A stretch of DNA of 58,697 bases, the filler included, from Barthelona sp. PAP020 (Eukaryota): NCBI GenBank assembly GCA_040182905.1. It is 6 parts of 6 records of this genome, joined end to end, with 100 filler letters (N's around TTAATTAATTAA, not from the genome) between each part and the next. Parts side by side here need not be neighbours in the genome. Positions count along the whole stretch, not along the records: positions 39,345 to 48,987 come from JARQWU010000421.1; 5 more parts are not named here. One strand, written 5' to 3'. This document shows positions 7,277-49,087 of this stretch, one piece after another; within the stretch, counting starts at the first letter, position 1; the number at the start of each line of letters is the position of its first letter. A program made the position numbers and the translations under genes. Under the pieces are notes generated by a model that saw only the letters and a list, made by a program, of their open reading frames with translations, did no database searches and was not told the DNA's origin.

Positions 7277-9505
7277 ATGAATGAAGATATTATAGATATT
7301 GATGATTTTTTCGATGAAGAAATAAAGAATGAGATGGATTCAAGGCATCCAAAAAGTAATATTTTCAATGTCATCAATAAAAATACATCAAAAGAAGTTA
7401 TAGATGATGAAAATGTTATTTCATTTGGTATAGGATCTTTGCAAAATAATGAAAATAATTTGGCTGAATTAGAAAATTCCAGTGGTTATGTTGAAGATGA
7501 TGATATTTTACCAATGGGATTTAGAAACAATAATGGAAGTAACAACAATACAAATATAATAAATGAAGCTTTAAATGTTGAGGAAAGGAGTTTTCAATCC
7601 ATTTCCCCTCAATTTTTCAATGACAGTTATCCATTAGGAGCAGATCGAACAAATTTTTATATTGCAAATGATTTTAATTCTCCACAAGTCTATAGCAGTG
7701 ATGATAATTATACGATTGAAACATTAAAAAAATCAACAAAAGCAAAACAAAACCATTCTTTTGAGACCGAAACAACAAGAAAACATTCACAGAGTAGTAA
7801 TAAGATAAAACCTCTTCATTTTGAGGAGAATGATGATGGAACAAAATATTTTTCTATGACACCATCAGATAAATATAATAATCTATTTTTAAGTAGGGTT
7901 AGACCAAAAAATGAAGATTTGATTGATTTTAGGGGGCATATGGAAAAATACAATTTTGTGATATTGGGAGGGTCTTTATCTGGATATGAATTAGGATTTA
8001 GATTGGCTTCTGTTGGTTTATCAGTAGCTTTGGTATGTGATACAATATTGAGTGGAACATCTTGGTTGAAGGGTGAAATACCATGTAAGTATTTGTTAGA
8101 ATATGCCAAATCTCAAGTTAAATATAACGATCTTGCTAGAAGGCAGTATGAAATCAATGATGTTTATTCAACAAACAATTTTTTGATTAAACAAGAGGAA
8201 TTTCAGCAATTCTTATCCTATTTTCGAATGGAAAGAGCACGTTTAAGCAAATTATGCAGTTATGCAAGAATAATTAAAAGTGGTGTGGATGTCTTTTATA
8301 ATAAAGGTTTATTTTTGGACGAAAATACAATTAGTATTAATGATTCTCAAAATACAAGATTCCGTTTTCATAAAGCTTGTGTGTGTATAGGAACTATTGA
8401 TATATTCCCTGATATTCCAGGTTTACAACAAATTGAATTTTTAACCAATGAAACAATCTTCAACATCAATAAATTGCCATTTTCCTTGGCAATTTTAGGA
8501 GAAAGCCTGGAAGCCATTTCGTTTACTCAATCTTTTGCTCTTTTGGGATTACATGTTACCCTAATTTACAAACACAAAAGTTTTGCACAATTTATGGACC
8601 CAGAAGCAGCTAATGTAGTACTTGAGGAAACAAAAAGGTTTGGTGCAAATGTTATTCTTGGAGCAGAGGTATTGAATATCATGAAACATGGTAAAAAGAA
8701 AAGTATCGTAATTGGTGGGTTGAATACGCTAGAAGTTGAAGAAATTCTGGTAATCCCAGATAAAATTCCGAAAATAACCAATATTGGGCTCAAAAATGCC
8801 AATATCAGCATTGAAAATTACGTGGAGGTAGATTCCAATCTTTGTACCTCAAATAAAAGAATATTTGCAATTGGAAGTTGTGTGAGTCAAATATTTGATC
8901 ATTCTTGTAATTCTGCTGTTGAATATATCTATCATAGAATCGTTTTTGACAATATTATCAAAAAGTTCAATTTTGCTAGTCTGATACTAACATTTCCATT
9001 GCTTCCTGGATTTGCTCAGGTAGGCTATACTCATCAAAAGGCCACTGGATTAGATCTGGAATTTAATGTTTATAAGATTAATAACAAAGAAATTACGTAT
9101 TGGAGTTCAAAAAACATTTCAAAAACAGGATTAAGCAAATTAATGATCAAAAATAATGGAAAAATTTTGGGTGCTACGTTTGTTTGTGATGAAAGTGGTG
9201 TACTTGCAGAAACAATCAGCCAATCAATGAATAATGGAGATTCTATTATCAAAATGAGTTTAAACCCTTCATATAGTTGTAGTCCTTTAATATTGCTGAA
9301 TTATTTTGCAGTTTTGTACAACATCGAAACAATCTCAAAGAAAAGAAAAAAAATTCTCATCAAACACTTTTCAAGATCCACCCATCCTGGTTTACGTTTT
9401 GAAGAACTTGAAGATTTCTTGAATGTCAACATTAGAGATCCAGTATTGGATATGGACAATAATAATAGCACATTTGAAGAGGTTATTAGTATATATCAAC
9501 CTTGA
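7277..9505 (+). CDS. Degenerate class-I pyridine nucleotide-disulfide oxidoreductase (mercuric reductase/lipoamide dehydrogenase-like) with ~200-aa low-complexity N-terminal extension
   Basis: YNFVILGGSLSG (FAD-binding), PDIPGL...FLTNETIF, TSNKRIFAIGSC and GKILGATFV follow the family order; the redox motif reads SGTSWLKGEIPCK instead of GGxCxxxGCxPSK. Confidence 0.8.
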   Translation: MNEDIIDIDDFFDEEIKNEMDSRHPKSNIFNVINKNTSKEVIDDENVISFGIGSLQNNENNLAELENSSGYVEDDDILPMGFRNNNGSNNNTNIINEALNVEERSFQSISPQFFNDSYPLGADRTNFYIANDFNSPQVYSSDDNYTIETLKKSTKAKQNHSFETETTRKHSQSSNKIKPLHFEENDDGTKYFSMTPSDKYNNLFLSRVRPKNEDLIDFRGHMEKYNFVILGGSLSGYELGFRLASVGLSVALVCDTILSGTSWLKGEIPCKYLLEYAKSQVKYNDLARRQYEINDVYSTNNFLIKQEEFQQFLSYFRMERARLSKLCSYARIIKSGVDVFYNKGLFLDENTISINDSQNTRFRFHKACVCIGTIDIFPDIPGLQQIEFLTNETIFNINKLPFSLAILGESLEAISFTQSFALLGLHVTLIYKHKSFAQFMDPEAANVVLEETKRFGANVILGAEVLNIMKHGKKKSIVIGGLNTLEVEEILVIPDKIPKITNIGLKNANISIENYVEVDSNLCTSNKRIFAIGSCVSQIFDHSCNSAVEYIYHRIVFDNIIKKFNFASLILTFPLLPGFAQVGYTHQKATGLDLEFNVYKINNKEITYWSSKNISKTGLSKLMIKNNGKILGATFVCDESGVLAETISQSMNNGDSIIKMSLNPSYSCSPLILLNYFAVLYNIETISKKRKKILIKHFSRSTHPGLRFEELEDFLNVNIRDPVLDMDNNNSTFEEVISIYQP

Positions 9506-9812: not shown

Positions 9813-9912
9813 NNNNNNNNNNNNNNNNNNNNNNNNNNNNNNNNNNNNNNNNNNNNTTAATTAATTAANNNNNNNNNNNNNNNNNNNNNNNNNNNNNNNN
9901 NNNNNNNNNNNN
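9813..9912. other. Artificial contig linker
   Basis: N44-TTAATTAATTAA-N44 (stops in all six frames). Confidence 0.99.
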
Positions 9913-10071: not shown

Positions 10072-11883
10072 TTAAAAATCTTTGACTTCGGGAATGCCAT
10101 TGGAATAAGAATTCAAACAGTTGTTCAACTGTTGTTCTATTAAATTCTTTAATTTTTCAATAGCGTTCGGTTTTAATCGCCAAATTCTACCAAAAGAAAC
10201 AGCCAATTCCGTTGGATTTGTATCAGGATATATTGTCAATCTTTGATGTTTATTTGCTTGTCCGAATGCAACGTCTAGATATAATAAAGGCTTTGATTCG
10301 GTATTCCGTTGCATGTTTCTTCTTTCTGTTTCTAATTCAAAAGGTTTGAAAGGCAAAGCTTTAGTTTTTCGATATGTTTCATCGGTATATCTTGGTTTTG
10401 GTTCTTCTTCAAGTTTTTTTTCTCTGGCTTTTTTCAATCTGTCAATAACCTTTTGTTGTGACAATGATAATTTGCTTTTGGGAGATATTGTTTTTTCATT
10501 AATTTTCGGACAAAAAGTACATTTCTTAAATTCACTCTCTTCAAAAGTTTCATATTTAGAAACTCTTTTGGGACTTTGGGATAGTTCCAAATAAGTATGT
10601 TTTACCCCATTTGTACTTTTTGATTTATAAAGAGTCGGGGAAAATGTGCATTCTTTTTCCTTTTCCTTTTTTAAATCTTCTTTAAGTCTGAAAATTTTCT
10701 CAATTTTTTTCTGCCCATCATCATATAGTCGGTTAAATGTATTTAATCTGGGGTCTTCTTTGTAATCACCAACTGTTGTGTAATTAAATAAATCAGAAGC
10801 ATTTAATTTTTCCTCTTTATTGGGGGTATATAAGTTTTTATTGGTTTTGGCTTTTCTTCTCTCTTTAAATAAATGATTTTTAAATTTCTCTTTTAAATTC
10901 TTGACAATATCAGCAAATATAGGATTGTCAAAAGAAATTTTTTCAATTTCTTTTTCTTTGAAGAATTCTTCATCTGCATCAATTATATGAGCATATAAAC
11001 TGGTTATCCTGGAATGACTGATTCTTGATTCATCATCATTTTCCCCCAAACTGGTCATTAATTGTGCAATAACAAAATCATCCAAAGGGTCATCAATTTC
11101 ATCATCCATTAAGTCCAATTCAATCAAAATTTGAGTTAATTCTGAACTTTCTACTGGATCATTGTATTCTTTTAAACATTCTAAACAAACTTTAAATCTT
11201 TGTTCAGTGATAATATAGCTGGAGCGTTCATTTATTGTTACTTTAGGTAAAAATTTCTTAGGCTTATTCTTTGGTTTTATTGCAAGATTATATAAATGAT
11301 TTGACCTGTTAATTGCTCTTTTTTCAATGCTGGATGAAATTTTTTTCGGAGAGTCTAACTTTAACTTTGGTGATTTATTTGATTTCACTGACAATCTTTC
11401 AAAGACTTCAGATTCACGATGGAGATTTTCAGAATAATCATTTATCTTTGGACTAAAGGTCAATTCATTATCTCTTTCATCAACTAAAGCCGATTTCAGA
11501 GTCTCGATTTTTTTTTGTTTCAACGATAGAAATCTTTCTTGGTCTTTGAGAAAAGCTTGATGCGATCTTCGCGGAGAATTATCTTTTGAGGACTTAGGTT
11601 GAAAAGTCAATTGTGAATTTTGTTCATTTTGAATTTGTTCTGTCAAATTGGCAATAACATTTGAATTATTTTTTGAATATAGCCGTTCAAAAACATTTGG
11701 CTGATTAAGTACTAACATTGCATTGGGTATACTCGACTGCTTGGGTGTTATTGGATGAATACTTTCACTTTCACTTTCTTCCTTTCGGACAGTTGTCGGA
11801 TCTATGAAATTTGGCCAAGGTTGATTCAATGGAGATAATTCGGTATCATTTTCATCATTATAACTGCCGTAATAGTAACTCAT
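10072..11883 (-). CDS. Repeat-containing hypothetical protein, possibly microtubule-associated
   Basis: Recurrent FERLY/FNRLY and (C/L)TFxPKIN motifs (LTFQPK, LTFSPKIN, CTFSPTL, CTFCPKIN); first ATG at 11883. Confidence 0.6.
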   Translation of the reverse strand: MSYYYGSYNDENDTELSPLNQPWPNFIDPTTVRKEESESESIHPITPKQSSIPNAMLVLNQPNVFERLYSKNNSNVIANLTEQIQNEQNSQLTFQPKSSKDNSPRRSHQAFLKDQERFLSLKQKKIETLKSALVDERDNELTFSPKINDYSENLHRESEVFERLSVKSNKSPKLKLDSPKKISSSIEKRAINRSNHLYNLAIKPKNKPKKFLPKVTINERSSYIITEQRFKVCLECLKEYNDPVESSELTQILIELDLMDDEIDDPLDDFVIAQLMTSLGENDDESRISHSRITSLYAHIIDADEEFFKEKEIEKISFDNPIFADIVKNLKEKFKNHLFKERRKAKTNKNLYTPNKEEKLNASDLFNYTTVGDYKEDPRLNTFNRLYDDGQKKIEKIFRLKEDLKKEKEKECTFSPTLYKSKSTNGVKHTYLELSQSPKRVSKYETFEESEFKKCTFCPKINEKTISPKSKLSLSQQKVIDRLKKAREKKLEEEPKPRYTDETYRKTKALPFKPFELETERRNMQRNTESKPLLYLDVAFGQANKHQRLTIYPDTNPTELAVSFGRIWRLKPNAIEKLKNLIEQQLNNCLNSYSNGIPEVKDF

Positions 11884-12004
11884 TGACAAATTTTAAACTG
11901 TTATTCAATCGAAACAGTCAGAAAAATGAAATAAAAATTAATCTTAAAAGAAAAAAATTTTTTTTTTCAAAAAAAAAAACCTACTTCAAACACTTTATTG
12001 AAAC

Positions 12005-12559
12005 TTAATTATAATATTCAACTTCTACTTTAATTTTCTTGGGTTTGTTTTCAACATTTTGAGGTCTGCCAAAAACAATGCACAAATTGGCGAAAGTTTC
12101 ATCTTCCTTACCAAATTGCTTAACAATTTCTTCAGCACCATACTTAACCAAACCAACAGGCAAACCTTTGTAACCTAAAGCTTCAGCAGCCAACAACAAG
12201 TTTTCACATGCAAAACCCATATCTTCAAATTGCCATTCATTCCAATCAGCTGAAGCTTTGTTAATGAAACAATACACAACAACAGGAGCATCACAAAAAA
12301 TAGGTTCATTGACACCCAAAGTTTCACGTCTTTTTGGAATAGGATCCCAACCGTTAGGAAGATTGTCTTCAGTTACTCTACTGATACGATTGTTGATTTC
12401 ACGATTAGTACAAACTTTAAATCTCCACTTTTGGAAATTACAAGCAGAAGGAGCTGAAAGAGCACATTCCATTATGTTTTCAATGTCTTCTTGAGGGACG
12501 ATATCATCAGTATATTGACGGCAAGAACTGCGGCTTTTAATGAGATTGAGAAAATCCAT
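12005..12559 (-). CDS. Nitroreductase family (FMN-dependent) protein
   Basis: IKSRSSCRQY, ALSAPSACNFQKWRF, APVVV and DMGFACENLLLAAEALGY are nitroreductase signatures. Confidence 0.92.
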   Translation of the reverse strand: MDFLNLIKSRSSCRQYTDDIVPQEDIENIMECALSAPSACNFQKWRFKVCTNREINNRISRVTEDNLPNGWDPIPKRRETLGVNEPIFCDAPVVVYCFINKASADWNEWQFEDMGFACENLLLAAEALGYKGLPVGLVKYGAEEIVKQFGKEDETFANLCIVFGRPQNVENKPKKIKVEVEYYN

Positions 12560-19710: not shown

Positions 19711-19810
19711 NNNNNNNNNNNNNNNNNNNNNNNNNNNNNNNNNNNNNNNNNNNNTTAATTAATTAANNNNNNNNNNNNNNNNNNNNNNNNNNNNNNNNNN
19801 NNNNNNNNNN
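19711..19810. other. Artificial contig linker
   Basis: N44-TTAATTAATTAA-N44. Confidence 0.99.
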
Positions 19811-24115: not shown

Positions 24116-25504
24116 ATGTCATCTCAATCTTTTCCAAGTTACAATTTCGATATAGATTTGGAAAGTTTCCGAAAAAACGAATTGCCATATCTAAAAGATG
24201 TTTATTTAGATTTTAATGGTACAAATGTATACACAATATCTCAAATTAATAAATTTCATGAAAGATTAACCACCAATGTATTTAAAAATCCACATTCAGA
24301 AATCGAACCAAAAAAGATATCTCCAATAGATGAAGCGAAGTGTCAGGTTTTGGAGTTTTTAGATGTTTCTAAAGAAACTCATCAAGTAATTTTTACAAGT
24401 GGTGCAACAGCAGCAGCTAAATTAATTGGAGAAAGTGTCAGAAAATCTGAAGATTCATGTTTTGTAAGTTTAGATACAAACCATACTTCCATTCTTGGAA
24501 TTCAAGGTTTTTACAATCATTTTGATGTAATAACTCCTGAAGAAATTGATGAAATGTTGAAGAATAATTCTATTGAACAAAATTCAATCAGAATTGAAGA
24601 TGATGAAAATTCAACTTATAATTTGTTTGCTATTCCCGGAGCTTGTAATTTATCTGGCATTCAATTTGATTTGTCAATTATTGATCACGTTAAGAATAAT
24701 TTGCTTGATAACAATGACAATGAGAAAAATTCAAAATGGTTAACACTTTTAGATGCAACAGCGTTGGTTCCTCACACACCATTGTCTTTACAAGAAGTAA
24801 ATGCTGATTTCACAGTGTTTTCATTTCATAAAATTTTTGGTTTTCCCACGGGTCTTGGATGTGTTGTTGTTCGTAATGAGATTCTGGAGCACAATTTATT
24901 GAACCATAAGAAATACTTTGGTGGGGGAGCTGTTCTTCCCTTAGGTTTATCTCCTATTCCTTTGGAAAATATCAAACAGTTTGAAGATGGAACACCAAAT
25001 TTACATGCTATTTTATCAATAAAGGATGGATTTGAGTTAATTTCTCGTTTTAATGGCTTATCTTCGATTCATAAATATACTACTGATGTTGCTTTCTGGT
25101 TATATGAAAGAATGAATCAACTTAAATACGAAAATGGTCAAAAATTGGTGAAAATATATGGTAATTTTCCTTGTATGCTCAAACAAGGTCCATGTATAGC
25201 TTTTAACGTTTATTACTCACATGGAAGTTTTAGAACTTATGGAAGCGTCATGCGACGACTGTCAAAAAAAAACATTTATGTTAGAAGTGGCATTATGTGT
25301 AATCCTGGTGCATGTATGCGATGGTGCAATCTTTCAAACAAAGAAATGGAACAAATAAAGAATCTAAAAGATAGTTGTGGAGATGGTTTTGAAATATTTG
25401 AAGGTAAACCCATTGGTGTTGTGCGAGTTTCCATTGGATATTTTACAAATGAATGTGATTGCTATTCATTTTTGAAAGTTTTAGAAAGTTTCTTAAATAT
25501 TTGA
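24116..25504 (+). CDS. Molybdenum cofactor sulfurase-like PLP-dependent cysteine desulfurase (no MOSC domain)
   Basis: VIFTSGATAA, SFHKIFGFPTGLG (PLP lysine), YFGGG, FEDGT, RSGIMCNPGAC and GVVRVSIGY; the ORF ends after the PLP domain. Confidence 0.85.
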   Translation: MSSQSFPSYNFDIDLESFRKNELPYLKDVYLDFNGTNVYTISQINKFHERLTTNVFKNPHSEIEPKKISPIDEAKCQVLEFLDVSKETHQVIFTSGATAAAKLIGESVRKSEDSCFVSLDTNHTSILGIQGFYNHFDVITPEEIDEMLKNNSIEQNSIRIEDDENSTYNLFAIPGACNLSGIQFDLSIIDHVKNNLLDNNDNEKNSKWLTLLDATALVPHTPLSLQEVNADFTVFSFHKIFGFPTGLGCVVVRNEILEHNLLNHKKYFGGGAVLPLGLSPIPLENIKQFEDGTPNLHAILSIKDGFELISRFNGLSSIHKYTTDVAFWLYERMNQLKYENGQKLVKIYGNFPCMLKQGPCIAFNVYYSHGSFRTYGSVMRRLSKKNIYVRSGIMCNPGACMRWCNLSNKEMEQIKNLKDSCGDGFEIFEGKPIGVVRVSIGYFTNECDCYSFLKVLESFLNI

Positions 25505-29496: not shown

Positions 29497-29596
29497 NNNN
29501 NNNNNNNNNNNNNNNNNNNNNNNNNNNNNNNNNNNNNNNNTTAATTAATTAANNNNNNNNNNNNNNNNNNNNNNNNNNNNNNNNNNNNNNNNNNNN
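29497..29596. other. Artificial contig linker
   Basis: N44-TTAATTAATTAA-N44. Confidence 0.99.
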
Positions 29597-39244: not shown

Positions 39245-39344
39245 NNNNNNNNNNNNNNNNNNNNNNNNNNNNNNNNNNNNNNNNNNNNTTAATTAATTAA
39301 NNNNNNNNNNNNNNNNNNNNNNNNNNNNNNNNNNNNNNNNNNNN
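39245..39344. other. Artificial contig linker
   Basis: N44-TTAATTAATTAA-N44. Confidence 0.99.
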
Positions 39345-39360: not shown

Positions 39361-39437
39361 ACATACTCTTTTGTAATTTTTGGCCTATGTGTCAGCTCGT
39401 GCGAATTGCAAATGTGTATGGCTTTTGCGTGGGCTTT
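39361..39437. repeat. Hairpin-forming direct repeat, copy A (immediately downstream of the operon)
   Basis: 42/53 identity with 48844-48896 plus an identical TGCGTGGGCTTT tail; stems CATAC/GTATG and TTTGTAATT/AATTGCAAA. Confidence 0.85.
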
Positions 39438-41047
39438 TAAAATATATCTTCTTCTTTTTCCCGTTTTGTTAAATCTTTTCTTTCTTTTTCATCTTTTTCT
39501 ACATCAATTTTTTCAACAACTAAATCTGCACTTGCAGGTCTTGCTCTTGATGATGCCCATTCTCTAAGTCCGTCAATTTTCTTTTTCATCGTAATTGCTA
39601 AAGGAACTATTTGTTCACAAGCAGAAATTAAATGACTTAGTTTAACCTGAGGACTTTCATTATTCTCTATATATGCGTTAAACATTGATTCTTTAACAAC
39701 TTCTTCAATTTCTGCACCATTGAAATATTTAGATTTATCACTCAAGCTTTCAAAGTTGGTAATCCCAGTTTGACCATTTTTAGTAAGATGAATGTTAAAA
39801 ATATTTTCTCTCTCTTTTTTAGTTGGTAAGTCAATAAAGAAGATTTCATCGAAACGACCTTTTCTAAGTAATTCAGGTGGCAGATTGCTAATATTATTTG
39901 CTGTTGCAACAACAAATACCGGTTTAGTTTTTTCCTGCATCCATGTTAGAATTGTAGAAAATACTCTTGAATTTGTCCCTCCGTCTTTTTCACCACCACC
40001 AGAACTAAGACCTTTTTCAATTTCATCAATCCAAAGAACACAAGGGGCTATTGCTTCGGCTGTTTGTATTGCCATTCTGATATTGTTTTCACTGCTTCCG
40101 ACCTCTGCCTGAAAAACTTTTCCAATATCTAATTTGAGTAAAGGTTGATTCCATTCACTCGCAATAGATTTTGCAGTTAAACTTTTACCAGTACCTGGCA
40201 CCCCAAGTAATAACATTCCTTTTGGCTCTTTTAAACCAAAAGCTTTTGCTTTGCGTTCAAAGGCTTTACTACGAAGTTTTAACCATTTTTTTAAGTTGTC
40301 AAGACCTCCAACACTTGAATCTAAGTTCTCATTTGTTTGGTAGTAGTCAAGGATTCCACTTTTTCTGATTATTTGAGATTTTTCACTTGCAATTATTTTA
40401 ATTGCTTCTCGTTTATTCAAACCAACTTTCTCTTTTGCAAGCCGAAAAGCCAAATCAGCTTCTGTATCAGTAAGTCCTGCTGCTGCATCTAATAAAAGTT
40501 TTTTTAAGTCTTCATTTATTGAATTTTCATGACCTAAAACAACTTCTAAACGTTTTTCTAAATCTGCCTTATCGGGTAAAGGCATATTTATTACGGTAAC
40601 ATATTTCTCAAGTTCTATCGGGAGTTTAAAGAAAGGTGAAAGCAGCAATAAATGTTTATTTAAAACTTTGAAATACTGGGTTATTTTTCGAAGTTGAACG
40701 ATAAATTTTTCATCACTGAATTGTTTATGTGCATCCTCAATAATGAAAATTTCTTTTGTGTTTTCTTTTTCTTTATTGCCTTTCAGCAAAAACTCCAACA
40801 AGCTATCAGGGTTTTCTGCTTCTTCATGACTTTGATGTTTTTCTACTTTATCAAGTCCATTGCTTCCTGATTTTTGTTTATGGTTTTGCAAACCATCTAC
40901 TAAGTCCCAAGTATTAAACTCATAACCTTTACGATATGCAATACTTCTAACTTTTTGGATAATCCTTCCATATTCAGGTGATGCAAGATATATCAATGGA
41001 TAATTTGCATCTAACATATATTTTAAATCTTCAAAACTTTTTCCCAT
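39437..41047 (-). CDS. Ycf46/SpoVK-like AAA+ ATPase (bacterial)
   Basis: Degenerate N-terminal AAA module, VGGLDNLKKWL, Walker A GVPGTGKS, Walker B VLWIDEIEK, SRH ATANNISNLPPELLRKGRFDEIFF and C-terminal LREWASSRARPAS. Confidence 0.93.
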   Translation of the reverse strand: MGKSFEDLKYMLDANYPLIYLASPEYGRIIQKVRSIAYRKGYEFNTWDLVDGLQNHKQKSGSNGLDKVEKHQSHEEAENPDSLLEFLLKGNKEKENTKEIFIIEDAHKQFSDEKFIVQLRKITQYFKVLNKHLLLLSPFFKLPIELEKYVTVINMPLPDKADLEKRLEVVLGHENSINEDLKKLLLDAAAGLTDTEADLAFRLAKEKVGLNKREAIKIIASEKSQIIRKSGILDYYQTNENLDSSVGGLDNLKKWLKLRSKAFERKAKAFGLKEPKGMLLLGVPGTGKSLTAKSIASEWNQPLLKLDIGKVFQAEVGSSENNIRMAIQTAEAIAPCVLWIDEIEKGLSSGGGEKDGGTNSRVFSTILTWMQEKTKPVFVVATANNISNLPPELLRKGRFDEIFFIDLPTKKERENIFNIHLTKNGQTGITNFESLSDKSKYFNGAEIEEVVKESMFNAYIENNESPQVKLSHLISACEQIVPLAITMKKKIDGLREWASSRARPASADLVVEKIDVEKDEKERKDLTKREKEEDIF

Positions 41048-41052
41048 ATCAG

Positions 41053-41685
41053 TTAACTTTTTGCAATTATTTTATTGTCGGATGTTACTTCGATTTTATT
41101 TTTGTATTTTGATGGAACACTTCTTTTTATAATATCACTTTCATTCCTTTTGTTGCCTAATTTTTCTTCAAGTTTTCGCATTGCTTCATTTGCTAATTTG
41201 TGCATATCATCAGGTAAATAGTTTGTGTCAGATACTACTGTTCCGTCATTAAGGATAGTAAATTTGATTTCAGTGCGTTTTTCTTTCTCCTTATTGTTTT
41301 TCGAGTAACCAACCATATAGAACCTGTCAACTTCAGTCTGATTTGGCTCAAAATCGTAATCTTTTTTTAATGAAAAACCTACATTTTTAAATTCTGATAA
41401 TATTGAACTTCGTGCATATTCAACATTTAATTTGTAAAAAACTTCTTTTAACTCATCTACAAGCTGCACACCATTTTTAAGGTAGTAACTATTATAAATA
41501 ACCTGACTTCCTTTAACCTTCATAGCATATTCGCCATGAACTTCTTGTTTAGGAATTTTAGTTATTGCAACTTCATCTGCTGTAACTTTATATTCCCAAT
41601 TCAAGCGTTGAGCTGCTTTTATAAGCACTTCTTTTGAAAAGATCTGTGGGTTTTTTAAAAATTTTGATGTTTCAAAACAAGACAT
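41053..41685 (-). CDS. DUF1257 (Ycf35)-like + DUF2997-like fusion protein
   Basis: N-terminal MSCFET...LIKAAQRLNW...EYARSSILSEFKNVGF resembles DUF1257; C-terminal EIKFTILNDGTV...LEEKLG resembles DUF2997; adjacent to a Ycf46-like ATPase. Confidence 0.65.
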   Translation of the reverse strand: MSCFETSKFLKNPQIFSKEVLIKAAQRLNWEYKVTADEVAITKIPKQEVHGEYAMKVKGSQVIYNSYYLKNGVQLVDELKEVFYKLNVEYARSSILSEFKNVGFSLKKDYDFEPNQTEVDRFYMVGYSKNNKEKEKRTEIKFTILNDGTVVSDTNYLPDDMHKLANEAMRKLEEKLGNKRNESDIIKRSVPSKYKNKIEVTSDNKIIAKS

Positions 41686-41686
41686 A

Positions 41687-44068
41687 TTATTTTCTCCTTT
41701 TGTTTGTTCTGTTTTTATTAGTTGACTTAGCCTGCTTTTTCATTCCAAGAATGTTTTTTAGTTCAGTGATGTTTTTTGCAGGTATCTCAAGCGTTTTAGC
41801 TTTAATACTCATTCCTTTGTCATTTGTTAATATGACAGGATTTCGCTTCATGTACTGAAGTGCAACAGAAAATATGATATTATCTGGTGATTTCTTATTA
41901 AAATCACTTGGTAAATTATCTATTTTACTTGTGTTAAATCTGATGTTTTTATCTTGACGATGTTTGTGGATATTACGAATCGCATTTTGAGCTTTATCTT
42001 TTAAGTCTGGTTTTACTTTTAAGTTATCCAACTCATCAATTACTTTCCCTGAAAATATAATTGTTTGCTGTTGCCCGATTATTTCTATAATATTTGGTTC
42101 TTCAAGTAAGATATTTGTGTCAATAATAATAGATTTCCTTTGACTTGCAATTTCAATATCCTTTTTTGTTGTTTTTAGTTTAGCTTCCAATTCAACAAAA
42201 AGAGTAAATTCTTCATCAAGGCACTTTTCTTTTTCCTTCTCTATTTGAGCTTCAATTTTTTCAATAAAACCTATTGTTGGATTTGTATTTTCCGTAAATT
42301 TCTTACTTAACTTCTCAATATCAGAATTGATTTTATGCATTCTATTTTGTAGTATAGAATTAATAGCTTGCTGCTTTTGTCTTTCTAAATTCTGGAAATA
42401 GTTACTTGAATTTCCCAAGGTTTTAAACGGGAGTAATTTTGTGTCAATATTGTTTGTTTCTGCTATTTTATCCTTATCTGTTTCATCATCTGTATTCAAT
42501 TCATTAAAAAACACTTTGATATTTTTATCTACAATTGGAACATACTCTTTTGCAAAAGATACGCGATATTTATTCAAATACTTTTCTTCTAAATCAAACT
42601 CAGTTATATTCCGGCATAAGAAGTGCTTTTCAATTTGATGCAAATCTCCGTTAATGGAAATTGGAATATTAGACTTCTCTCTTTTAAATACATTCCAAGT
42701 TTTATTATTAGATTTGAACAAAACATTAAACTCAACAACTGAGTCCATCAAAAGAATATAGACATTCTGGAATTGTTCAACAGCCTTGTTTATTTCGTCA
42801 TAAAGTTGCTGCGATATCTCATTATTTTCTAGATAGATGAAAAAGTATTTTTCCTTAGAATTAATAGTTAAATTCTTTATGGCATCTATCTCTTTTTTAG
42901 AAACATCTTTCAGTAAGAACCAAATTTCTTGTTTAGAAAACTCAATGAATTTTGAAATGTTATTGAAAAATATTTCCGGTTCAATAAACAAAGAATCCTT
43001 GTAGTATTCATCCAAAATGGCAATAGCTTCTTCTGTACTTTTCTCCTCTAACGCCACATTTATCTTCTTCTGATAATTCGTTAAATTTTCTGCAATATTG
43101 TTTTTCTCAATATTATAATCTTGCAACTGATAGTTTGAATTAACAAAATCTATAAAGGTTTTGTGATTGATTCTTTTACAATCATATTCTGAGAAAAAAT
43201 CATTTGCGGATTTACTAGTTGGTTCAAATACAATTGAACTAAGTTTTCCATTCGTAATATCAAGTAGATATATTCTGTATAATATTGTTTTGAAATGGCT
43301 TACGTTGATACATTCAGAATCTTTAAAAGAACTTAATGTGTCAGGATTATATATCTGAGGAATTTGACTTTTTGCAAATGTTTTTAAGAATCCTTCATCC
43401 TCAAAGTCTATTTTGCAATCACCATTCTCTACTCTAACTCCTTTGATGAATTCAAAATTATCTTTTGCATTTAAATGCTGACTACTTGTATAGTCAAAGT
43501 ACAATTCAAAAGTTTTGTTTTGATGTGTCTTGAATTTTTTGCCTTTCGTAACATATTCTTTTCCAATTGCTGTAAGAGTGCAATATGAAAAATCAATATC
43601 CCCACCATCTATCATTTCAAATTCTTGCAGCGATTGCAGTGCTTCCTTTAGAATTTCATATTCGGCTAAATCTTTATATTTTTTCTGAGAAGGATTATCA
43701 ACTACGTTAAAACCCAAAATTTCCCCAATTTGCTCCAAACTTAGATGTTCTTCTATTTGTAATAATCCACAAATTGTTTTATCAAACAAAGTAAAGTCTA
43801 TTGCTTCAGTGCATGTTGCTGAATATTTTGCTTTGGAGAAGAACCATTCGATTTCTTCATAACCAAGATATATTTCTGTTAATTTTTTATCAGAATGTGA
43901 TGTGCTAAATAAAAAATTCTCTATTTCAGTTTTTATATCTATTGCAGGCTCTTTTGTTAGTGCGGCTTTTCTATCAGGTCTTGTGCGTAAGTTTATTAAA
44001 GAAAGGTCTATCTTTCCTAAAATTCCTGCATCAGGATTCTCATTATTTGAATTAGAACTATTTGTCAT
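41687..44068 (-). CDS. Large protein: wHTH-like N-terminus, coiled coil, C-terminal PIN (PhoH-N/Swt1/SMG6-like) RNase
   Basis: IIIDTNILL, VIDELDNLK, PDNIIFSVA and ILTNDKGMSIKA, with the acidic catalytic residues intact; LSLEQIGEILGF...LTAIGKEY is wHTH-like. Confidence 0.85.
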   Translation of the reverse strand: MTNSSNSNNENPDAGILGKIDLSLINLRTRPDRKAALTKEPAIDIKTEIENFLFSTSHSDKKLTEIYLGYEEIEWFFSKAKYSATCTEAIDFTLFDKTICGLLQIEEHLSLEQIGEILGFNVVDNPSQKKYKDLAEYEILKEALQSLQEFEMIDGGDIDFSYCTLTAIGKEYVTKGKKFKTHQNKTFELYFDYTSSQHLNAKDNFEFIKGVRVENGDCKIDFEDEGFLKTFAKSQIPQIYNPDTLSSFKDSECINVSHFKTILYRIYLLDITNGKLSSIVFEPTSKSANDFFSEYDCKRINHKTFIDFVNSNYQLQDYNIEKNNIAENLTNYQKKINVALEEKSTEEAIAILDEYYKDSLFIEPEIFFNNISKFIEFSKQEIWFLLKDVSKKEIDAIKNLTINSKEKYFFIYLENNEISQQLYDEINKAVEQFQNVYILLMDSVVEFNVLFKSNNKTWNVFKREKSNIPISINGDLHQIEKHFLCRNITEFDLEEKYLNKYRVSFAKEYVPIVDKNIKVFFNELNTDDETDKDKIAETNNIDTKLLPFKTLGNSSNYFQNLERQKQQAINSILQNRMHKINSDIEKLSKKFTENTNPTIGFIEKIEAQIEKEKEKCLDEEFTLFVELEAKLKTTKKDIEIASQRKSIIIDTNILLEEPNIIEIIGQQQTIIFSGKVIDELDNLKVKPDLKDKAQNAIRNIHKHRQDKNIRFNTSKIDNLPSDFNKKSPDNIIFSVALQYMKRNPVILTNDKGMSIKAKTLEIPAKNITELKNILGMKKQAKSTNKNRTNKRRK

Positions 44069-47000
44069 TGCTAAATTTCTTTTTCAATTCATTGTAATTG
44101 ATTATCATTCCTTCGTTTCCGATTATCTCTACGACATTTTTATAAATTCTATCCCCTGTATTGTTTTGATATTGTGAAAAGAAATTCTTATTACCTACAA
44201 CAATTAACAACCTTTTAGCGCGTGAAAGAGCAACATTTAAACGTTGAGGTGATTTTGCGAAACCAATATCTCTATTAGGTCGGATTTTACCATTATCAAT
44301 AACCTGATTACTCCTTACTGTTGAAACAATAATTATATTTCGTTCCATCCCTTGAAACTTATCTACAGTATTTAGTCTTACAGGAATATTTAGCTTGCTT
44401 CTTGAATATTTTGCAACTTTCCTTAGTAACCCAACTTGATGTCCATAAAAGCTAATTAATCCAATTTCTTCTTCTTCTTTTTTTTTGTTTTCATCTTTAA
44501 TACCATCCCAGTGTTCCATATATTCTGTAAAACCATTTGCTTTTTTCAATAGTTTCAAGACTAATGAAATAGCCTCAACTTCTGAAGTATTTGTTCTTGA
44601 TGTACCACTTTTTTTTTCAGGTTCATCAACATCAATCCATATTGTATGTATGTCAGGTTTAATAAAATCTTTTAAAAGAAAACCGTGATGCCTTGAAAAT
44701 GGATTATTTAAATTAGTGTCATCTGCATTCTCAATTATTGGTTTTCCTGGCTCCAATCCCCCTTCTTCAAGATAAAATTGCTTAATAACGTTATTGATTT
44801 TAGGGTGCATCCTGTATTGCTCATTGAATGATGATTTAATTGTAGGAGAAACATTTGGATGAGTGATAAGCCTTTCAAATTGAGAAGTTTCAACGAAATC
44901 CTTATCAATTTCTTCCGCCAATTCTTTAGCTTCTTTAGTTTCAAGAGTTTCTAACACTTCTTTAAAAGATTTATCGTGCAACATTGGAGGTAATTGGCGG
45001 TGGTCACCAATAATGATATTCTTTTTACCATAGCACATTGGTAATAATAATTCTGGTGGAGTTGCTTTACTTGCTTCGTCTGTTATAACTGTATCAAATT
45101 CAGTTGAGATTAGAAGAGATTCATTTTTTCTGTTTATCAATGAACCAAAACGCAAGTATATGTTAGCAAGCTTAGCCGCTAATTGTTCATTATATCCATT
45201 GTTTACGAAACGTTCAATTATTTTGTCTTCATCAATTTCACCTTTAATTGATTGAACAATTTTCTGATTTTTTGTAGCTAGTTTATGCCAAAAATATGTT
45301 TTACTTATATCTTCAACCTCATCTTTTTTTTCATTAAAAAGGTTTTGATAATCAGCTCCAAAATTTGGACTCCCTGCCGAACTACTTGTACTGCCAACAA
45401 CATTACAGTACTTAAAATATTTATCTTTAAAAAGAGTTTTCATTTTTTTTTGAGGTTGCGCCATTTCAAATGCCCAACCCCTCATTATGTCCCCATATTT
45501 GGGATTCGTTTGGTGAGAATTGTCAGCTATTCTTCGCATCCACAATTGAACAGCATTGTTGTTAAAATTTTCATATACTATTTCCTCTTCCGATTCTTCA
45601 TCTTCGTTAACTTCATTTTCATATAAATCATCAACTACAATATTCTCGTCAATCCATTTCATTATTCTTTCAAAAGAGTATTTTTTTCCTTCTTCCTCGA
45701 ATTTTGAAGCTCTACCGAAACGAATTGGTTTTACAATTGTGTGTTCTTTATTTAAAAGTTTTTCAAGAGCGTTATCTACAGCAAGATTAGTTTCAGATGT
45801 CAGCAATATTCTTTGTTGCTGGTTTGTTCTAATCATTTGCCAAATCATTTCAGCAATTACTGTTGTTTTTCCTGTTCCTGGAGGACCTTGTAATAAAGCT
45901 AAATCCGTGGCGTGTAATGCAGATAAGATGGCTCTGCGTTGTGAATTATTTAGAGTTAACAGTTCATGCCTTTTTAATTCGTTCCAATCTTCTGTGTCTT
46001 CTGATAAATTCCTAAAAACTTCTGTCGCTTTTGAACTATCAAAAACAAATTCTTTAAGTTTTTCATTTACAGGTTTGCTATCTAATCCTTCCTGTGGATT
46101 AATAACTTTATTCATGGCTTCATTAAGCCAAGTAATTTTTGCTTGGTCTCCTCGCAAGTTAGGAATAACTGTATTTACGTGAGGTTCTTTATCTATGAAT
46201 TTTAGAAAATTATCAGTTTGTTTTTTCTCATCTTTCCATTTGTAAGGAAGATTAAAAACTAGATTATTGTAATCTGAAATTTTAGCAGCAAGGTTTCCTA
46301 TTGGCAAAAACTTTTTTCTTCTGGTTTCTTGATTTTCTATTGCAACTCTAAATTCTACTCCAGCAAGATTTTTCAATTTATCCTCAAATGCTTCTTTTTG
46401 AGATTTTTTTGCTATTAAATTTATTTTAACCTTGAATTTGAAATCATCATCTAATGGTGATTTTACGATATTGAATTGATTTAATGATTTAATTTTATTA
46501 AATCGATATTCGAGTTCTTCCTTATTTTCAAATTCAAATGCAATATTTTTATACTCGCCAAATTCGACTTCAAATTCAAAGTCATGAAAATCTCGTTTTA
46601 AATTATTCCAAAATTCATCATCAAAGCCTGTAGTTATTTCTGAACCTAAAGTATATACTTCGCCAAGATTAAATTTTACGCTTTTTGCACCTTCATCAAA
46701 AAGTGTTTTTCTTTTTCTCAAAAGTCTATCTTTAAATTCTGATTTGGATTTTGAAACAAATGAGAAAGAGGAATCGGGTCTAAACCATTTATTAACTGTA
46801 TCTTTTACTGGTAGACCATCTTTGTTAATTACGGAAAACCTACCTATAAGCCCTTTCCTTTGAAGTTTAAATTTTTGAATTATTTCTTTAGGCAAAACTG
46901 CTATTTTATCACTACTGTTATAAAACTCAACAGTGTTTTCTTCTGTGCCGTTTCGGACAAAAAGATTCCAGTTTAATTTCTCTAATTCATTTTTAACTAT

Positions 47001-47813
47001 TTGAGAATTGACAAACGGGCGGATTTTTAAAATGCAGGCGATTTTTCTGTTCCTTTCAAAAGTGTCTGAAAAATCCTTACTTATTACTTTATCAATACCT
47101 CTGAAAATATCATTAAGTTTTAATAGAATTACATCTCCTTCAAATTTATCTTCTATTTCAAAGGGATTCTTTTTTATTGCTTCTTGCAATGCTTCATATT
47201 CTGGATTTTCTTTTTGCTTGAGTTTTGTCCTAAACTGCATTCTGATGGAGCTAACATCAATTGGTTGGTCGTATCCTGAAATTTCAATCGGCTGAGAATT
47301 CTTTTCCAAAATCAACTCTTGTGCTTCAATCCATTTTTCCCATATTTCTTGTTGATTTTCAATGTTTGATTTTGGAGAAATCTCTAGCTCACAAATTTTA
47401 CCATATAAGTTTTGCTGTTCTCTGCTTGGAAAAGGTGTATCATTGAAGTCAATTAAAGAAATGTTACAATCTTCCTGAATATAGTATTTACTAATTTCAA
47501 CGCTTTTGTATTCTTGAATTATTCTTTTTGATTTCTTGTTTATTACAGCTTTGTAATCATGAGTTTTTGGTAACCATTTTAATGTAAGGTCAATGTTCTT
47601 ATTTGTGTCTTCAATTGAAATTAACAATTTGTGCTCATCAGCATTCTTTTTACTGAATAAGCATTGATACTGATTCGAACTTAACCAATTTTTTAAATCA
47701 TCAAAAGTTCCATGATTTTGTTGATTTAACATTTGAATTGTTTTTTTGTCAAAACGAATAACAATGTCAATCACATCATCATTAAATATGTCTTCTTCGT
47801 TTCTATATGCCAT
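44058..47813 (-). CDS. UPF1/DNA2-like superfamily-1 helicase with ~550-aa unrecognised N-terminal region
   Basis: LNNSQRRA, QGPPGTGKTT, SETNLAVDN, ITDEASKA, GDHRQLPP, QYRMHP, TVDKFQGMER and RLNVALSRAK. Confidence 0.93.
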   Translation of the reverse strand: MAYRNEEDIFNDDVIDIVIRFDKKTIQMLNQQNHGTFDDLKNWLSSNQYQCLFSKKNADEHKLLISIEDTNKNIDLTLKWLPKTHDYKAVINKKSKRIIQEYKSVEISKYYIQEDCNISLIDFNDTPFPSREQQNLYGKICELEISPKSNIENQQEIWEKWIEAQELILEKNSQPIEISGYDQPIDVSSIRMQFRTKLKQKENPEYEALQEAIKKNPFEIEDKFEGDVILLKLNDIFRGIDKVISKDFSDTFERNRKIACILKIRPFVNSQIVKNELEKLNWNLFVRNGTEENTVEFYNSSDKIAVLPKEIIQKFKLQRKGLIGRFSVINKDGLPVKDTVNKWFRPDSSFSFVSKSKSEFKDRLLRKRKTLFDEGAKSVKFNLGEVYTLGSEITTGFDDEFWNNLKRDFHDFEFEVEFGEYKNIAFEFENKEELEYRFNKIKSLNQFNIVKSPLDDDFKFKVKINLIAKKSQKEAFEDKLKNLAGVEFRVAIENQETRRKKFLPIGNLAAKISDYNNLVFNLPYKWKDEKKQTDNFLKFIDKEPHVNTVIPNLRGDQAKITWLNEAMNKVINPQEGLDSKPVNEKLKEFVFDSSKATEVFRNLSEDTEDWNELKRHELLTLNNSQRRAILSALHATDLALLQGPPGTGKTTVIAEMIWQMIRTNQQQRILLTSETNLAVDNALEKLLNKEHTIVKPIRFGRASKFEEEGKKYSFERIMKWIDENIVVDDLYENEVNEDEESEEEIVYENFNNNAVQLWMRRIADNSHQTNPKYGDIMRGWAFEMAQPQKKMKTLFKDKYFKYCNVVGSTSSSAGSPNFGADYQNLFNEKKDEVEDISKTYFWHKLATKNQKIVQSIKGEIDEDKIIERFVNNGYNEQLAAKLANIYLRFGSLINRKNESLLISTEFDTVITDEASKATPPELLLPMCYGKKNIIIGDHRQLPPMLHDKSFKEVLETLETKEAKELAEEIDKDFVETSQFERLITHPNVSPTIKSSFNEQYRMHPKINNVIKQFYLEEGGLEPGKPIIENADDTNLNNPFSRHHGFLLKDFIKPDIHTIWIDVDEPEKKSGTSRTNTSEVEAISLVLKLLKKANGFTEYMEHWDGIKDENKKKEEEEIGLISFYGHQVGLLRKVAKYSRSKLNIPVRLNTVDKFQGMERNIIIVSTVRSNQVIDNGKIRPNRDIGFAKSPQRLNVALSRAKRLLIVVGNKNFFSQYQNNTGDRIYKNVVEIIGNEGMIINYNELKKKFSNDK

Positions 47814-48801
47814 TATCTATGTGATAGTTTAATAGTTTTATTGTTAACCCTTTGTAAATTTTACAATACCAATCAAGCAAATTAGTATTGTTTTCTTCTG
47901 TTGTAATCAAACATTGAGTCTGACAATAATCTTTAATAATACATTCGTTACATCTTTGTGAATCAGCTAAATTCTGTTTTCTTGAATTAAACTGCTCACT
48001 TATTAAATTCCAATTATCTTGAAAAGTCCCTAAACTTGAATTTGAATAAGGACACATACTAATTTTGCCGTCAGGCAAAATAGCTATTGTTTCTCCCTTT
48101 GTTGCAGGGCAAAATCCATTTCGGTTGTCTGAAATTAAGTTGAGAAATGGATAAAGCCATGTTCCTTCCACACTCAAACCTCTTTCATTTGCAAAAACGT
48201 ATAGATTGAAAACTCTATCAATTACACTTTCAGGTTTTAAGTTAATTCCATAATAATCGATATTTAATCGCCAAGTTTTTATTTTCAAATGTTCAAGTGT
48301 CATGATAAAGTCAGTTGAAATTTTCTGAATGTTTTCGTTTTTTAATGTTGTTGTTAATGAGTTGAGCAAAATATCGTTTTTATTTAATCGCTCAATACTA
48401 GAAACAATTTCATCATAACTCCCGTCACCTCTTACTTTATCATTTTCATATTTCAATCCATCAAGCGATGTATGAACCTGAACTTTATTTGCTTTTATAA
48501 ATTCAATGATTTCTGAATTTAGCAAAATCAAATTTGAATAGATACTATAGTCAATTTCTTTATTTGTTGCGTTCTGAGTTTGCTTTATGATTTTTGTTAA
48601 AGAATTCCATTTCAAAAATGGTTCTCCTCCAGTAAAATGGATTTGATATTTCTCGGAACTCTCATTTTGTATTATTCTATGAATTAATCTACTATGGTCA
48701 ATATCTTTTTCTTCTGAAATTTTTGTCCGAATACAATCTGTACAATCAAGATTACAATCATTATCTAATACAATATCAATTCTGTAAGGTTGATACCGCA
48801 C
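47803..48801 (-). CDS. Radical SAM protein with C-terminal SPASM domain
   Basis: CNLDCTDC (CxxxCxxC), FTGGEPFL, SLDG and SPASM cysteines CPA...PDGKISMCP...CNECIIKDYCQTQC...YC. Probable GTG start at 48801, because the listed extension to 48936 merely reads through the hairpin repeat. Confidence 0.88.
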   Translation of the reverse strand: MRYQPYRIDIVLDNDCNLDCTDCIRTKISEEKDIDHSRLIHRIIQNESSEKYQIHFTGGEPFLKWNSLTKIIKQTQNATNKEIDYSIYSNLILLNSEIIEFIKANKVQVHTSLDGLKYENDKVRGDGSYDEIVSSIERLNKNDILLNSLTTTLKNENIQKISTDFIMTLEHLKIKTWRLNIDYYGINLKPESVIDRVFNLYVFANERGLSVEGTWLYPFLNLISDNRNGFCPATKGETIAILPDGKISMCPYSNSSLGTFQDNWNLISEQFNSRKQNLADSQRCNECIIKDYCQTQCLITTEENNTNLLDWYCKIYKGLTIKLLNYHIDNGI

Positions 48802-48839
48802 TAATTTTGGGCAAGTCTCTGGTTGTGGGTCGGCTAAAA

Positions 48840-48914
48840 TTGCACTCTTTTGCAAATTTTGGTTTGAGGGTTGGCTCGTGGGATTTGCAAATGTGTGCAA
48901 TGTGCGTGGGCTTT
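48840..48914. repeat. Hairpin-forming direct repeat, copy B (upstream of the operon)
   Basis: Perfect stems TTGCAC/GTGCAA and TTTGCAAAT/ATTTGCAAA; homologous to 39361-39437. Confidence 0.85.
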
Positions 48915-48987
48915 CTATGTCATTATCTCTACTCAATTTTAGTTATTATTTCAATGTTCGTGGTCTTTTTAGCATTACCCCCAACTT

Positions 48988-49087
48988 NNNNNNNNNNNNN
49001 NNNNNNNNNNNNNNNNNNNNNNNNNNNNNNNTTAATTAATTAANNNNNNNNNNNNNNNNNNNNNNNNNNNNNNNNNNNNNNNNNNNN
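48988..49087. other. Artificial contig linker
   Basis: N44-TTAATTAATTAA-N44. Confidence 0.99.

Follow-up and report, generated by a model that had tools for sequence, protein, structure and literature searches.

A UPF1-like helicase, a PIN domain protein and a Ycf46-type ATPase in a predicted mobile defence cassette of Bacteroidota

The operon described here lies within a stretch of 58,697 nt (the window) from the assembly of the eukaryote Barthelona sp. PAP020 (GCA_040182905.1). It fills the whole of a 9,643-nt contig (39345–48987; JARQWU010000421.1), the fifth of six in the window, and its five genes are all on the minus strand. Starting at the 5′ end (the higher coordinates), the operon encodes a radical S-adenosylmethionine (rSAM)/SPASM enzyme (47803–48801; 332 aa from a GTG start, or 377 aa from a TTG at 48936; Pfam Radical_SAM, 1.8e-14), and then continues as a UPF1/IGHMBP2-like SF1 helicase with an MkoA-like core (44058–47813; 1251 aa; Pfam AAA_11/AAA_12). 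This is followed by a 793-aa protein (41687–44068), termed the partner below, in which a winged helix, a PLD-like fold, a stalk and a PIN domain are assigned from an AlphaFold2 model and fold matches. The last two genes encode a DUF1257-like and possibly DUF2997-like small protein of 210 aa (41053–41685; HHalign, Atlas cluster and model) and a AAA+ ATPase (39437–41047; 536 aa; Pfam AAA, 1.3e-32), which we take to be of the Ycf46 type. The five co-oriented open reading frames (ORFs) of the original prediction are recovered at the same coordinates by ORF calling, and its junctions of −11, −11, +1 and +5 nt are reproduced when the GTG at 48801 is taken as the start. The helicase, PIN, AAA and rSAM catalytic motifs that it listed are all found in a motif search. 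There are 37 promoter-like sites, below the shuffle mean of 45.

The helicase contains the motifs GPPGTGKT (643–650), DEA (912), GDHRQLPP and RLNVALSRA, and matches the PADLOC MkoA profile with 1.1e-99 over residues 544–1232. Its best solved relatives are SMUBP-2 and Upf1, with DNA2 also among them. The helicase has no Pfam Pkinase match and no kinase motifs, and at most one short motif at chance level is present in 16 relatives. The AlphaFold2 model of the partner has a mean predicted local distance difference test (pLDDT) score of 85. Residues 88–177 form a winged helix (MarR, Z 11.0, rmsd 2.5, 73 aligned), and residues 326–510 form a PLD-like fold that superimposes on the N-terminal part of SauUSI, presumably the PLD domain of that enzyme (Z 10.9, rmsd 4.9, 147 aligned). 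A helical stalk links this region to the PIN domain (643–776), for which SMG6 is the best match (Z 17.5, rmsd 2.0, 122 aligned), followed by Nmd4 (Z 15.0). SMG5 and Rrp44 are also among the nearest PIN folds, and the fold is shared by VapC toxins. The acidic residues of the PIN domain (D650, E679, D729 and D750) are retained in nearly all PIN-bearing rows of the alignment. The window partner has no HxK..GSxN PLD motif and no match to PADLOC MkoB.

The partners are of two kinds. A set of 47 was assembled from 27 of 99 protein matches, 19 loci and the window, and placed in a quick tree. In 39 of them the PIN motif is present and HxK..GSxN is missing; in the other eight HxK..GSxN is kept and there is no PIN domain. 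The two kinds form the two sides of a single branch with a support of 100. The partner of a locus outside the tree (L013) is also of the PLD type. Weak matches to PADLOC MkoB (3e-10 to 6e-6) are found in four of the PIN-less partners. Judged from motifs and models, the PIN domain appears to have replaced a PLD site that is predicted to be dead, on a winged-helix/PLD scaffold that has been kept. The helicase and partner are likely derived from a Mokosh-type helicase/PLD pair.

The ATPase comprises a degenerate N-terminal AAA-like part, in which a remnant resembling Walker B is left but Walker A is missing, and an intact second AAA domain containing GVPGTGKS (282–289), IDEIEK (340) and RKGRFD (395). 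Threading unfoldases have an aromatic residue at the pore-loop position. In the ATPase alignment the residue preceding ‘VGxSE’ is E, T, V, L, I or F; an aromatic residue is missing in most rows, and the earlier description of this protein as an unfoldase is therefore weak. Full-length relatives are found on cyanobacterial plasmids (36–41% identity over 93% of the length). Mycobacteriophage records (H21–H40) also contain full-length relatives, of ~29% identity, that are common in one phage group. In cyanobacteria the ycf46 operon is described as KaiC-interacting, and as rising with stress and growth arrest (PMC13683863).

The 210-aa protein, which had been described as a DUF1257/DUF2997 fusion, has no passing match in Pfam. 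The DUF1257 part stands on profile comparison: the N-terminal half matches a DUF1257-like set (30 members, nine of which match Pfam DUF1257) in HHalign at 96% with E 2.3e-9, and weak Pfam DUF1257 matches occur in 15 of 56 orthologs. The other part is suggested. The C-terminal half may be DUF2997-like, given a weak HHalign match to a DUF2997 set (E 0.009, prob 4%) and an Atlas cluster at 0.89 in which 71% of members have DUF2997. The model (pLDDT 87) lends this some further support, since both halves share one sheet there, within one alpha/beta domain. The model has no Foldseek match at E ≤ 0.001, and its other fold matches are middling (spermine synthase N-terminal part, Z 7.9; METTL16 VCR, 6.4; KA1, 6.3), so no function is claimed from its fold. 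No ortholog of the protein was found among viral contigs.

The order helicase–partner–small protein–AAA recurs in 20 Bacteroidota loci. Ten of these (L001, L002, L004, L006–L011 and L013) are among the best 80 of the 586 loci returned by an ATPase scan; in that set the best ATPase match has 82% identity, and every core locus with a name belongs to Bacteroidota. Four samples of 400 genomes each yielded further carriers, none from the phylum of G001, three from the family of G001, four from the order of G007 and two from the family of G002, and all 10 loci taken from the genome samples retain the four-gene order. The core is thus carried by no more than ~1% of the sampled genomes, and its distribution is patchy, as expected for a mobile accessory system. 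The predicted recurrence of five genes holds in that the gene order is found in other loci, but the fixed unit is one of four genes to which the rSAM gene is an optional addition. Presence of the latter could be judged in 15 of the 20 loci (L004, L008, L010, L179 and L180 are cut too close upstream), and it is found in one, L178. It follows from its absence in the other 14 that the core does not need the rSAM enzyme.

Neighbourhoods rich in defence genes had also been expected, and they surround roughly half of the relatives examined. In a PADLOC scan covering chosen ORFs of 13 core loci, strong matches (E < 1e-40) lie beside the operon in seven. These are PDC-M16A, PDC-S68, Tiamat, a CBASS cyclase, type IIG restriction-modification, type I restriction-modification with Lamassu, and PbeA/DndA. 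A weak match is present in L183, and among the chosen ORFs of L006, L176, L178, L180 and L182 there is no PADLOC-positive neighbour.

The rSAM enzyme has ten cysteines, and its CxxxCxxC, FC, CP, CxxCx5Cx3C and late C elements are kept in all 22 aligned rows. It has no match to Pfam SPASM itself, and none of the 25 NCBIfam models shown for named rSAM/SPASM maturases (PapB, HxsB, anSME etc.) passes its cut-off, the best being PapB (89 against 340). Prokaryotic viperin was considered and rejected (43 bits against a cut-off of 180; PADLOC pVip matches with 4.5e-14 over the core only, and the enzyme has extra SPASM-type cysteines). There are 24 matches at 41–95% identity, after which values fall to ≤35%. 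The start is uncertain, since the reading frame is open upstream to the TTG at 48936 and the four closest relatives are likewise annotated with 377 aa; the GTG is mostly not conserved in these four. In the window (48802–48936, minus strand) and in the same relatives the leader repeat described below reads through in frame as 45 extra residues at the N-terminus, and a non-coding cassette repeat may have been turned into rSAM coding sequence.

Several lines of evidence connect the rSAM gene with the core. In L178 all five genes are present in order (63, 73, 63, 87 and 88% identity), and the leader and trailer repeats are shared as well; in L081 an rSAM ortholog (56%) is followed after a 2-nt gap by a helicase ortholog (70%). 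Contigs of rSAM orthologs and cluster members have 13 distinct lengths of at least 6.5 kb, and nine of these equal a length listed for homologs of the partner (99 listed) or among the best 120 of 275 small-protein homologs, where ~0.06 would be expected by chance. This link is indirect, although for one pair it has been verified by sequence, in L178. None of 16 distant rSAMs shares such a length with small-protein or partner contigs. Pairwise identities of rSAM and partner are correlated over eight operons, three of them close relatives (Spearman 0.90; none of 5040 sampled permutations as high). The rSAM gene is optional, yet non-randomly tied to the operon. In the quick tree the rSAM-bearing operons are scattered through the PIN-type clade with rSAM-less groups between them, which fits an early gain and later losses without proving it. 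A metagenome scan with the rSAM alignment gave at least one true ortholog, among 80 loci retained, and with the rSAM query used no ortholog was found in five core-bearing genomes. In three PLD-type loci (L006:2483–2941, L009:1648–2073 and L181:6040–6492) the slot upstream of the helicase that corresponds to that of rSAM contains a conserved protein of ~150 aa, 60–65% identical among the three, unrelated to rSAM and with no NCBIfam match.

The operon is bounded by repeats, as predicted: 39365–39417 corresponds to 48844–48896 (79%) and 39415–39437 to 48892–48914 (78%). By repeat comparison these are the trailer copy (39365–39437, minus strand) and the leader copy (48844–48914, minus strand) of a Bacteroidota cassette-end repeat, the former lying directly after the AAA stop and the latter in frame if rSAM starts at TTG 48936. 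The trailer repeat also follows the AAA gene in L001, L002, L008, L172, L178, L182, L183 and L184. The repeats look like the leader and trailer of a cassette, next to attC-like arms. There is no Rfam match in the window contig, L001 or L178, the end repeat included.

A predicted 5′ cassette core, a GTT-starting 10-mer, lies at 48976–48985 (minus strand), where it is cut by the contig end. Its exact reverse complement is found in L178 (9453), 118 nt past the AAA stop, where it starts an attC-like stretch; the 10-mer has four occurrences in 2.29 Mb of loci. This complement places the rSAM gene inside the predicted cassette. Both arms of the window are cut by contig ends and its cassette support is the 10-nt match to L178 only; the core is not seen in the 197 nt that L178 itself has upstream. 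Among 14 loci with at least ~300 nt of flank on both sides, six (L001, L002, L009, L172, L182 and L183) have an upstream GTT-starting 9-mer with an exact downstream complement, and within these six two pairs share an identical core. Shuffles give such core pairs at 1–7% per locus (first set). In L001, L002 and L009 the cores end or begin hairpins of 131–195 nt. The matching end cores suggest that the operon is one integron-type cassette. In L002 the attC-like arm on the downstream side of the operon is broken by what looks, by eye, like an insertion sequence (11870–12400). A tyrosine recombinase in G002 (L170:13369–16375; 212 bits against the integron-integrase cut-off of 265) borders on an array of attC-like repeats and single-gene cassettes, ~33 kb from the operon; this array is possibly a Bacteroidota integron type overlooked by standard profiles.

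The ATPase and small protein have counterparts beyond the core loci. In cyanobacteria a two-part AAA ATPase likewise lies beside a DUF1257-like protein, in a module of Ycf46, DUF1257 (Ycf35) and DUF2997. In the operon, by contrast, the two small proteins appear to be fused, Gly and Cys residues that never vary in free DUF2997 are not conserved, and the module is joined to a helicase–nuclease pair on a mobile cassette. The occurrence of DUF2997 beside DUF1257 is noted in PMC4284462. Of the 66 more distant ATPase loci within the best 80 of 586, 39 have DUF2997, 29 an NrdG-like rSAM and 19 a helicase fragment nearby; the wider family also pairs a Ycf46-type ATPase with a helicase and with a radical SAM gene of another type. 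A seven-gene module with the order AAA, helicase, two uncharacterized proteins, DUF2997, DUF1257-like protein and NrdG-like rSAM occurs in archaea and several bacterial phyla (L016, L021, L026, L027, L028, L042, L045, L054, L062 etc.). The first of the two uncharacterized proteins ends, as judged by eye, in an HDR-type domain, an NYN/PIN-like domain or no extra domain. Where compared with the operon (L016, L021, L026, L027, L042, L054 etc.) this module shares the ATPase family and both DUFs, and likewise includes a helicase similar to MkoA and a gene for a radical SAM enzyme, but has its own gene order, an rSAM of NrdG rather than SPASM type, and separate DUFs. Homology of its two uncharacterized proteins to the partner is not established by HHalign (E 0.02–0.03). 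In free DUF2997 (36 loci aligned) the Gly and Cys form a GxxGxxC motif, often encoded beside an NrdG-like activase. This could be a radical site; the motif is kept also where there is no such enzyme nearby.

The closest named system is Mokosh type I. This combines a Upf1-like helicase containing a serine-threonine kinase with a PLD nuclease, and both helicase ATPase and nuclease activity are needed (10.1101/2022.05.11.491447; also 10.1101/2022.12.12.520048). The operon similarly encodes a helicase of the Upf1-like type (COG1112) whose ATPase motifs are intact, and then, in a gene of its own, a protein with a PLD fold; the PIN-less sister partners match MkoB weakly and keep HxK..GSxN. It differs in adding the Ycf46-type ATPase, the DUF1257/2997-like protein and the optional rSAM/SPASM enzyme. 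In view of the missing kinase and the dead PLD site, the operon is placed as one that would work like Mokosh type I without being a member of it. Mokosh type II, in which helicase and PLD are fused, was rejected; there are two ORFs with an 11-nt overlap, and the MkoC match spans the helicase only. PLuB, IetAS and ProA fall below their cut-offs (PLuB_AAA 169 against 999, IteA 92 against 510, ProA 56 against 1500). The claim that no named system has this composition stands insofar as there is no full match in PADLOC 2.0 or NCBIfam, but needs amending, since helicase and partner derive from the Mokosh-type pair. The open-access literature searched, which leaves subscription papers, Mokosh instance tables and current DefenseFinder models outside, contains no description of this five-part combination. 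What the present analysis adds is the subtype with an rSAM/SPASM gene, the exchange of PLD for PIN, and the cassette ends. Defence systems in integron cassettes tend to be small and streamlined, according to 10.1101/2024.07.02.601686. As in these, the whole system appears to lie between matching cassette cores in attC-like arrays; unlike them it is large (4–5 genes in 8.5–9.6 kb), and the recombinase found nearby scores too low for an integron integrase.

It is quite probable that the operon functions in anti-phage or anti-plasmid defence of some kind. In the specific form that we favour, at about even odds, it would be a mobile, Mokosh-derived anti-phage cassette. The UPF1-like helicase would sense and unwind phage RNA, the presumed substrate, which would then pass to the PIN domain, a predicted RNase on a winged-helix/PLD scaffold, and be cut there. 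Cutting might halt the infected cell or destroy phage transcripts. The Ycf46-type ATPase, with the DUF1257/2997-like protein, could then remodel or reset the helicase–nuclease complex, and the SPASM enzyme, where present, would be an optional tuner that modifies one protein of the operon. Since a separate precursor gene would not fit into the cassette, the target of this enzyme is placed among the operon’s own proteins, as the usual behaviour of SPASM enzymes leads one to expect. The need for helicase ATPase and nuclease in Mokosh defence (10.1101/2022.05.11.491447) is counted as support for the defence model.

A number of points weigh against this proposal. Defence is so far a predicted role for every member. 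The helicase has no serine-threonine kinase as in Mokosh type I, and the partner has a PIN domain in place of HxK..GSxN or an MkoB match, intact PLD being confined to the PIN-less clade (8 of 47). The PLD/PIN split follows a single branch, and therefore counts as one event, not 47. The count of seven loci in 13 with defence neighbours comes from chosen ORFs without a matched control, and L178, the sole full five-gene relative, is not among the seven. The rSAM gene is absent from 14 of the 15 informative genome loci. An exact core pair is missing from eight of the 14 loci, and none of five host genomes has an integron integrase above the TIGR02249 cut-off, for which reason the cassette is called integron-type and not an integron. 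UPF1-like relatives include the DNA-acting DNA2 and SMUBP-2, and with a winged helix in the partner the target may be DNA. In cyanobacteria, ATPases related to this one act in stress regulation (PMC13683863), and relatives also occur in phages.

Among the alternatives, a possible but minor one is that the four-gene core is the defence system, and the rSAM/SPASM enzyme a long-term co-rider with a separate job such as making a small-molecule or nucleotide product. Its absence from most loci is consistent with this, as are the unrelated ~150-aa gene in its slot in three PLD-type loci and the four of 13 long rSAM contigs without a length match among the matches listed. Yet the rSAM and helicase genes are joined by a translational overlap or a 2-nt gap in the window, L081 and L178, rSAM divergence tracks that of the partner over 30–97% identity, and an NrdG-type radical SAM gene accompanies the distant Ycf46 modules in 29 of 66 loci (best 80 of 586), all of which count against this alternative.

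A more ambitious form of the favoured proposal is rather doubtful. Here the operon would be a bacterial counterpart of UPF1-SMG6 RNA surveillance directed against phage transcripts, armed when the rSAM enzyme modifies one of the operon's proteins, reset by Ycf46/DUF1257/DUF2997, and carried on one 9.6-kb integron-type cassette. As in the UPF1-SMG6 core of nonsense-mediated decay, a UPF1-like helicase is paired with a PIN domain that is closest to SMG6; the difference is that this is a likeness of fold only (26% identity over 122 residues), and PIN_4-type domains are widespread.

It is unlikely that helicase and PIN domain target DNA or RNA-DNA hybrids, such as replication intermediates or incoming plasmids, instead of transcripts. 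The winged-helix and PLD-like scaffold and the presence of DNA2 and SMUBP-2 among the best solved helicase relatives would suit such a target, and RNA/DNA intermediates are left possible in the Mokosh paper (10.1101/2022.05.11.491447). On the other hand the nearest PIN folds come from the RNA-decay proteins SMG6, Nmd4, SMG5 and Rrp44, and what has been lost is the DNase-type PLD motif.

Similarly improbable is a growth-arrest cassette resembling a toxin–antitoxin system, triggered by stress or loss and not by phage, in which the ATPase module restrains a PIN RNase toxin and the unit stabilizes the array or induces dormancy. The rise of the cyanobacterial ycf46 operon with growth arrest (PMC13683863, as above) points that way. 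So do the PIN fold common to VapC toxins and the position of the unit in cassette-like arrays. Against this, defence systems adjoin seven of the 13 loci. Ordinary toxin–antitoxin pairs are also far smaller than a unit of 9.6 kb with a 1251-aa MkoA-like helicase.

If the mobile, Mokosh-derived cassette is accepted as the working proposal, Mokosh-type defence becomes a family built of modules, in which the nuclease can be swapped (a live PLD or a PIN domain) and an accessory slot may or may not be used; natural comparisons are thereby provided. The widespread, unexplained Ycf46/DUF1257/DUF2997 module and a precursor-less SPASM enzyme would be placed in a setting that can be tested by plaque assay. 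Should the UPF1-SMG6-like form prove true, a molecular role would be assigned to the Ycf46 module for the first time, and the SPASM enzyme would be the first, within the literature searched, to be placed in a defence system. If the cassette assignment is correct, integron-type arrays of Bacteroidota move defence operons of 8.5–9.6 kb, against the trend to small cassettes.

The contig is most likely a stray Bacteroidota contig within a eukaryote assembly, flagged here as such, and not a case of gene transfer. The window is made of six unrelated contigs, ordered by falling length from 9,812 down to 9,610 nt. They are joined by five copies of an artificial linker (9813–9912, 19711–19810, 29497–29596, 39245–39344 and 48988–49087), a repeated N44-12nt-N44 sequence spaced at 9.7–9.9 kb whose 12-nt word gives stops in all frames; it is not biological, and gene neighbourhood is therefore not readable across the joins. 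GC content is ~30% across all six contigs, which may explain a binning error that placed a bacterial contig in this assembly; the tetranucleotide signature sets the operon contig weakly apart from its neighbours (mean r 0.35 against 0.48). Contigs of 9.7–9.8 kb that are ~97% identical and carry all five genes were found in three metagenome studies, one per study (runs X2, X3 and X5), each reconstructed as two pieces joined across 76 diverged letters. These break near the same end repeats as the window contig, where depth rises in three of four runs; the fourth run, X11, gave fragments only. Residence in the eukaryote genome through horizontal transfer, for which the eukaryotic genes of the other contigs and the similar GC content might speak, is extremely improbable and is rejected on the linkers at both sides, the ~97% identical metagenome contigs breaking near the same repeats, the lack of any eukaryotic gene on the contig, the intact operon junctions and the assignment of every named core locus to Bacteroidota.

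The other five contigs contain eukaryotic genes by Pfam, for example BCCIP, an SPB4-like DEAD helicase, WD40 and kinase-ankyrin proteins. On the neighbouring contig, a pair of genes for kinase-ankyrin fusions (49110–51947 and 52508–54883) point in opposite directions. Intronless genes for a pyridine nucleotide-disulphide oxidoreductase (7277–9505), a nitroreductase (12005–12559) and a class V aminotransferase (24116–25504) are also present on eukaryotic contigs, and are possible acquisitions of bacterial type.

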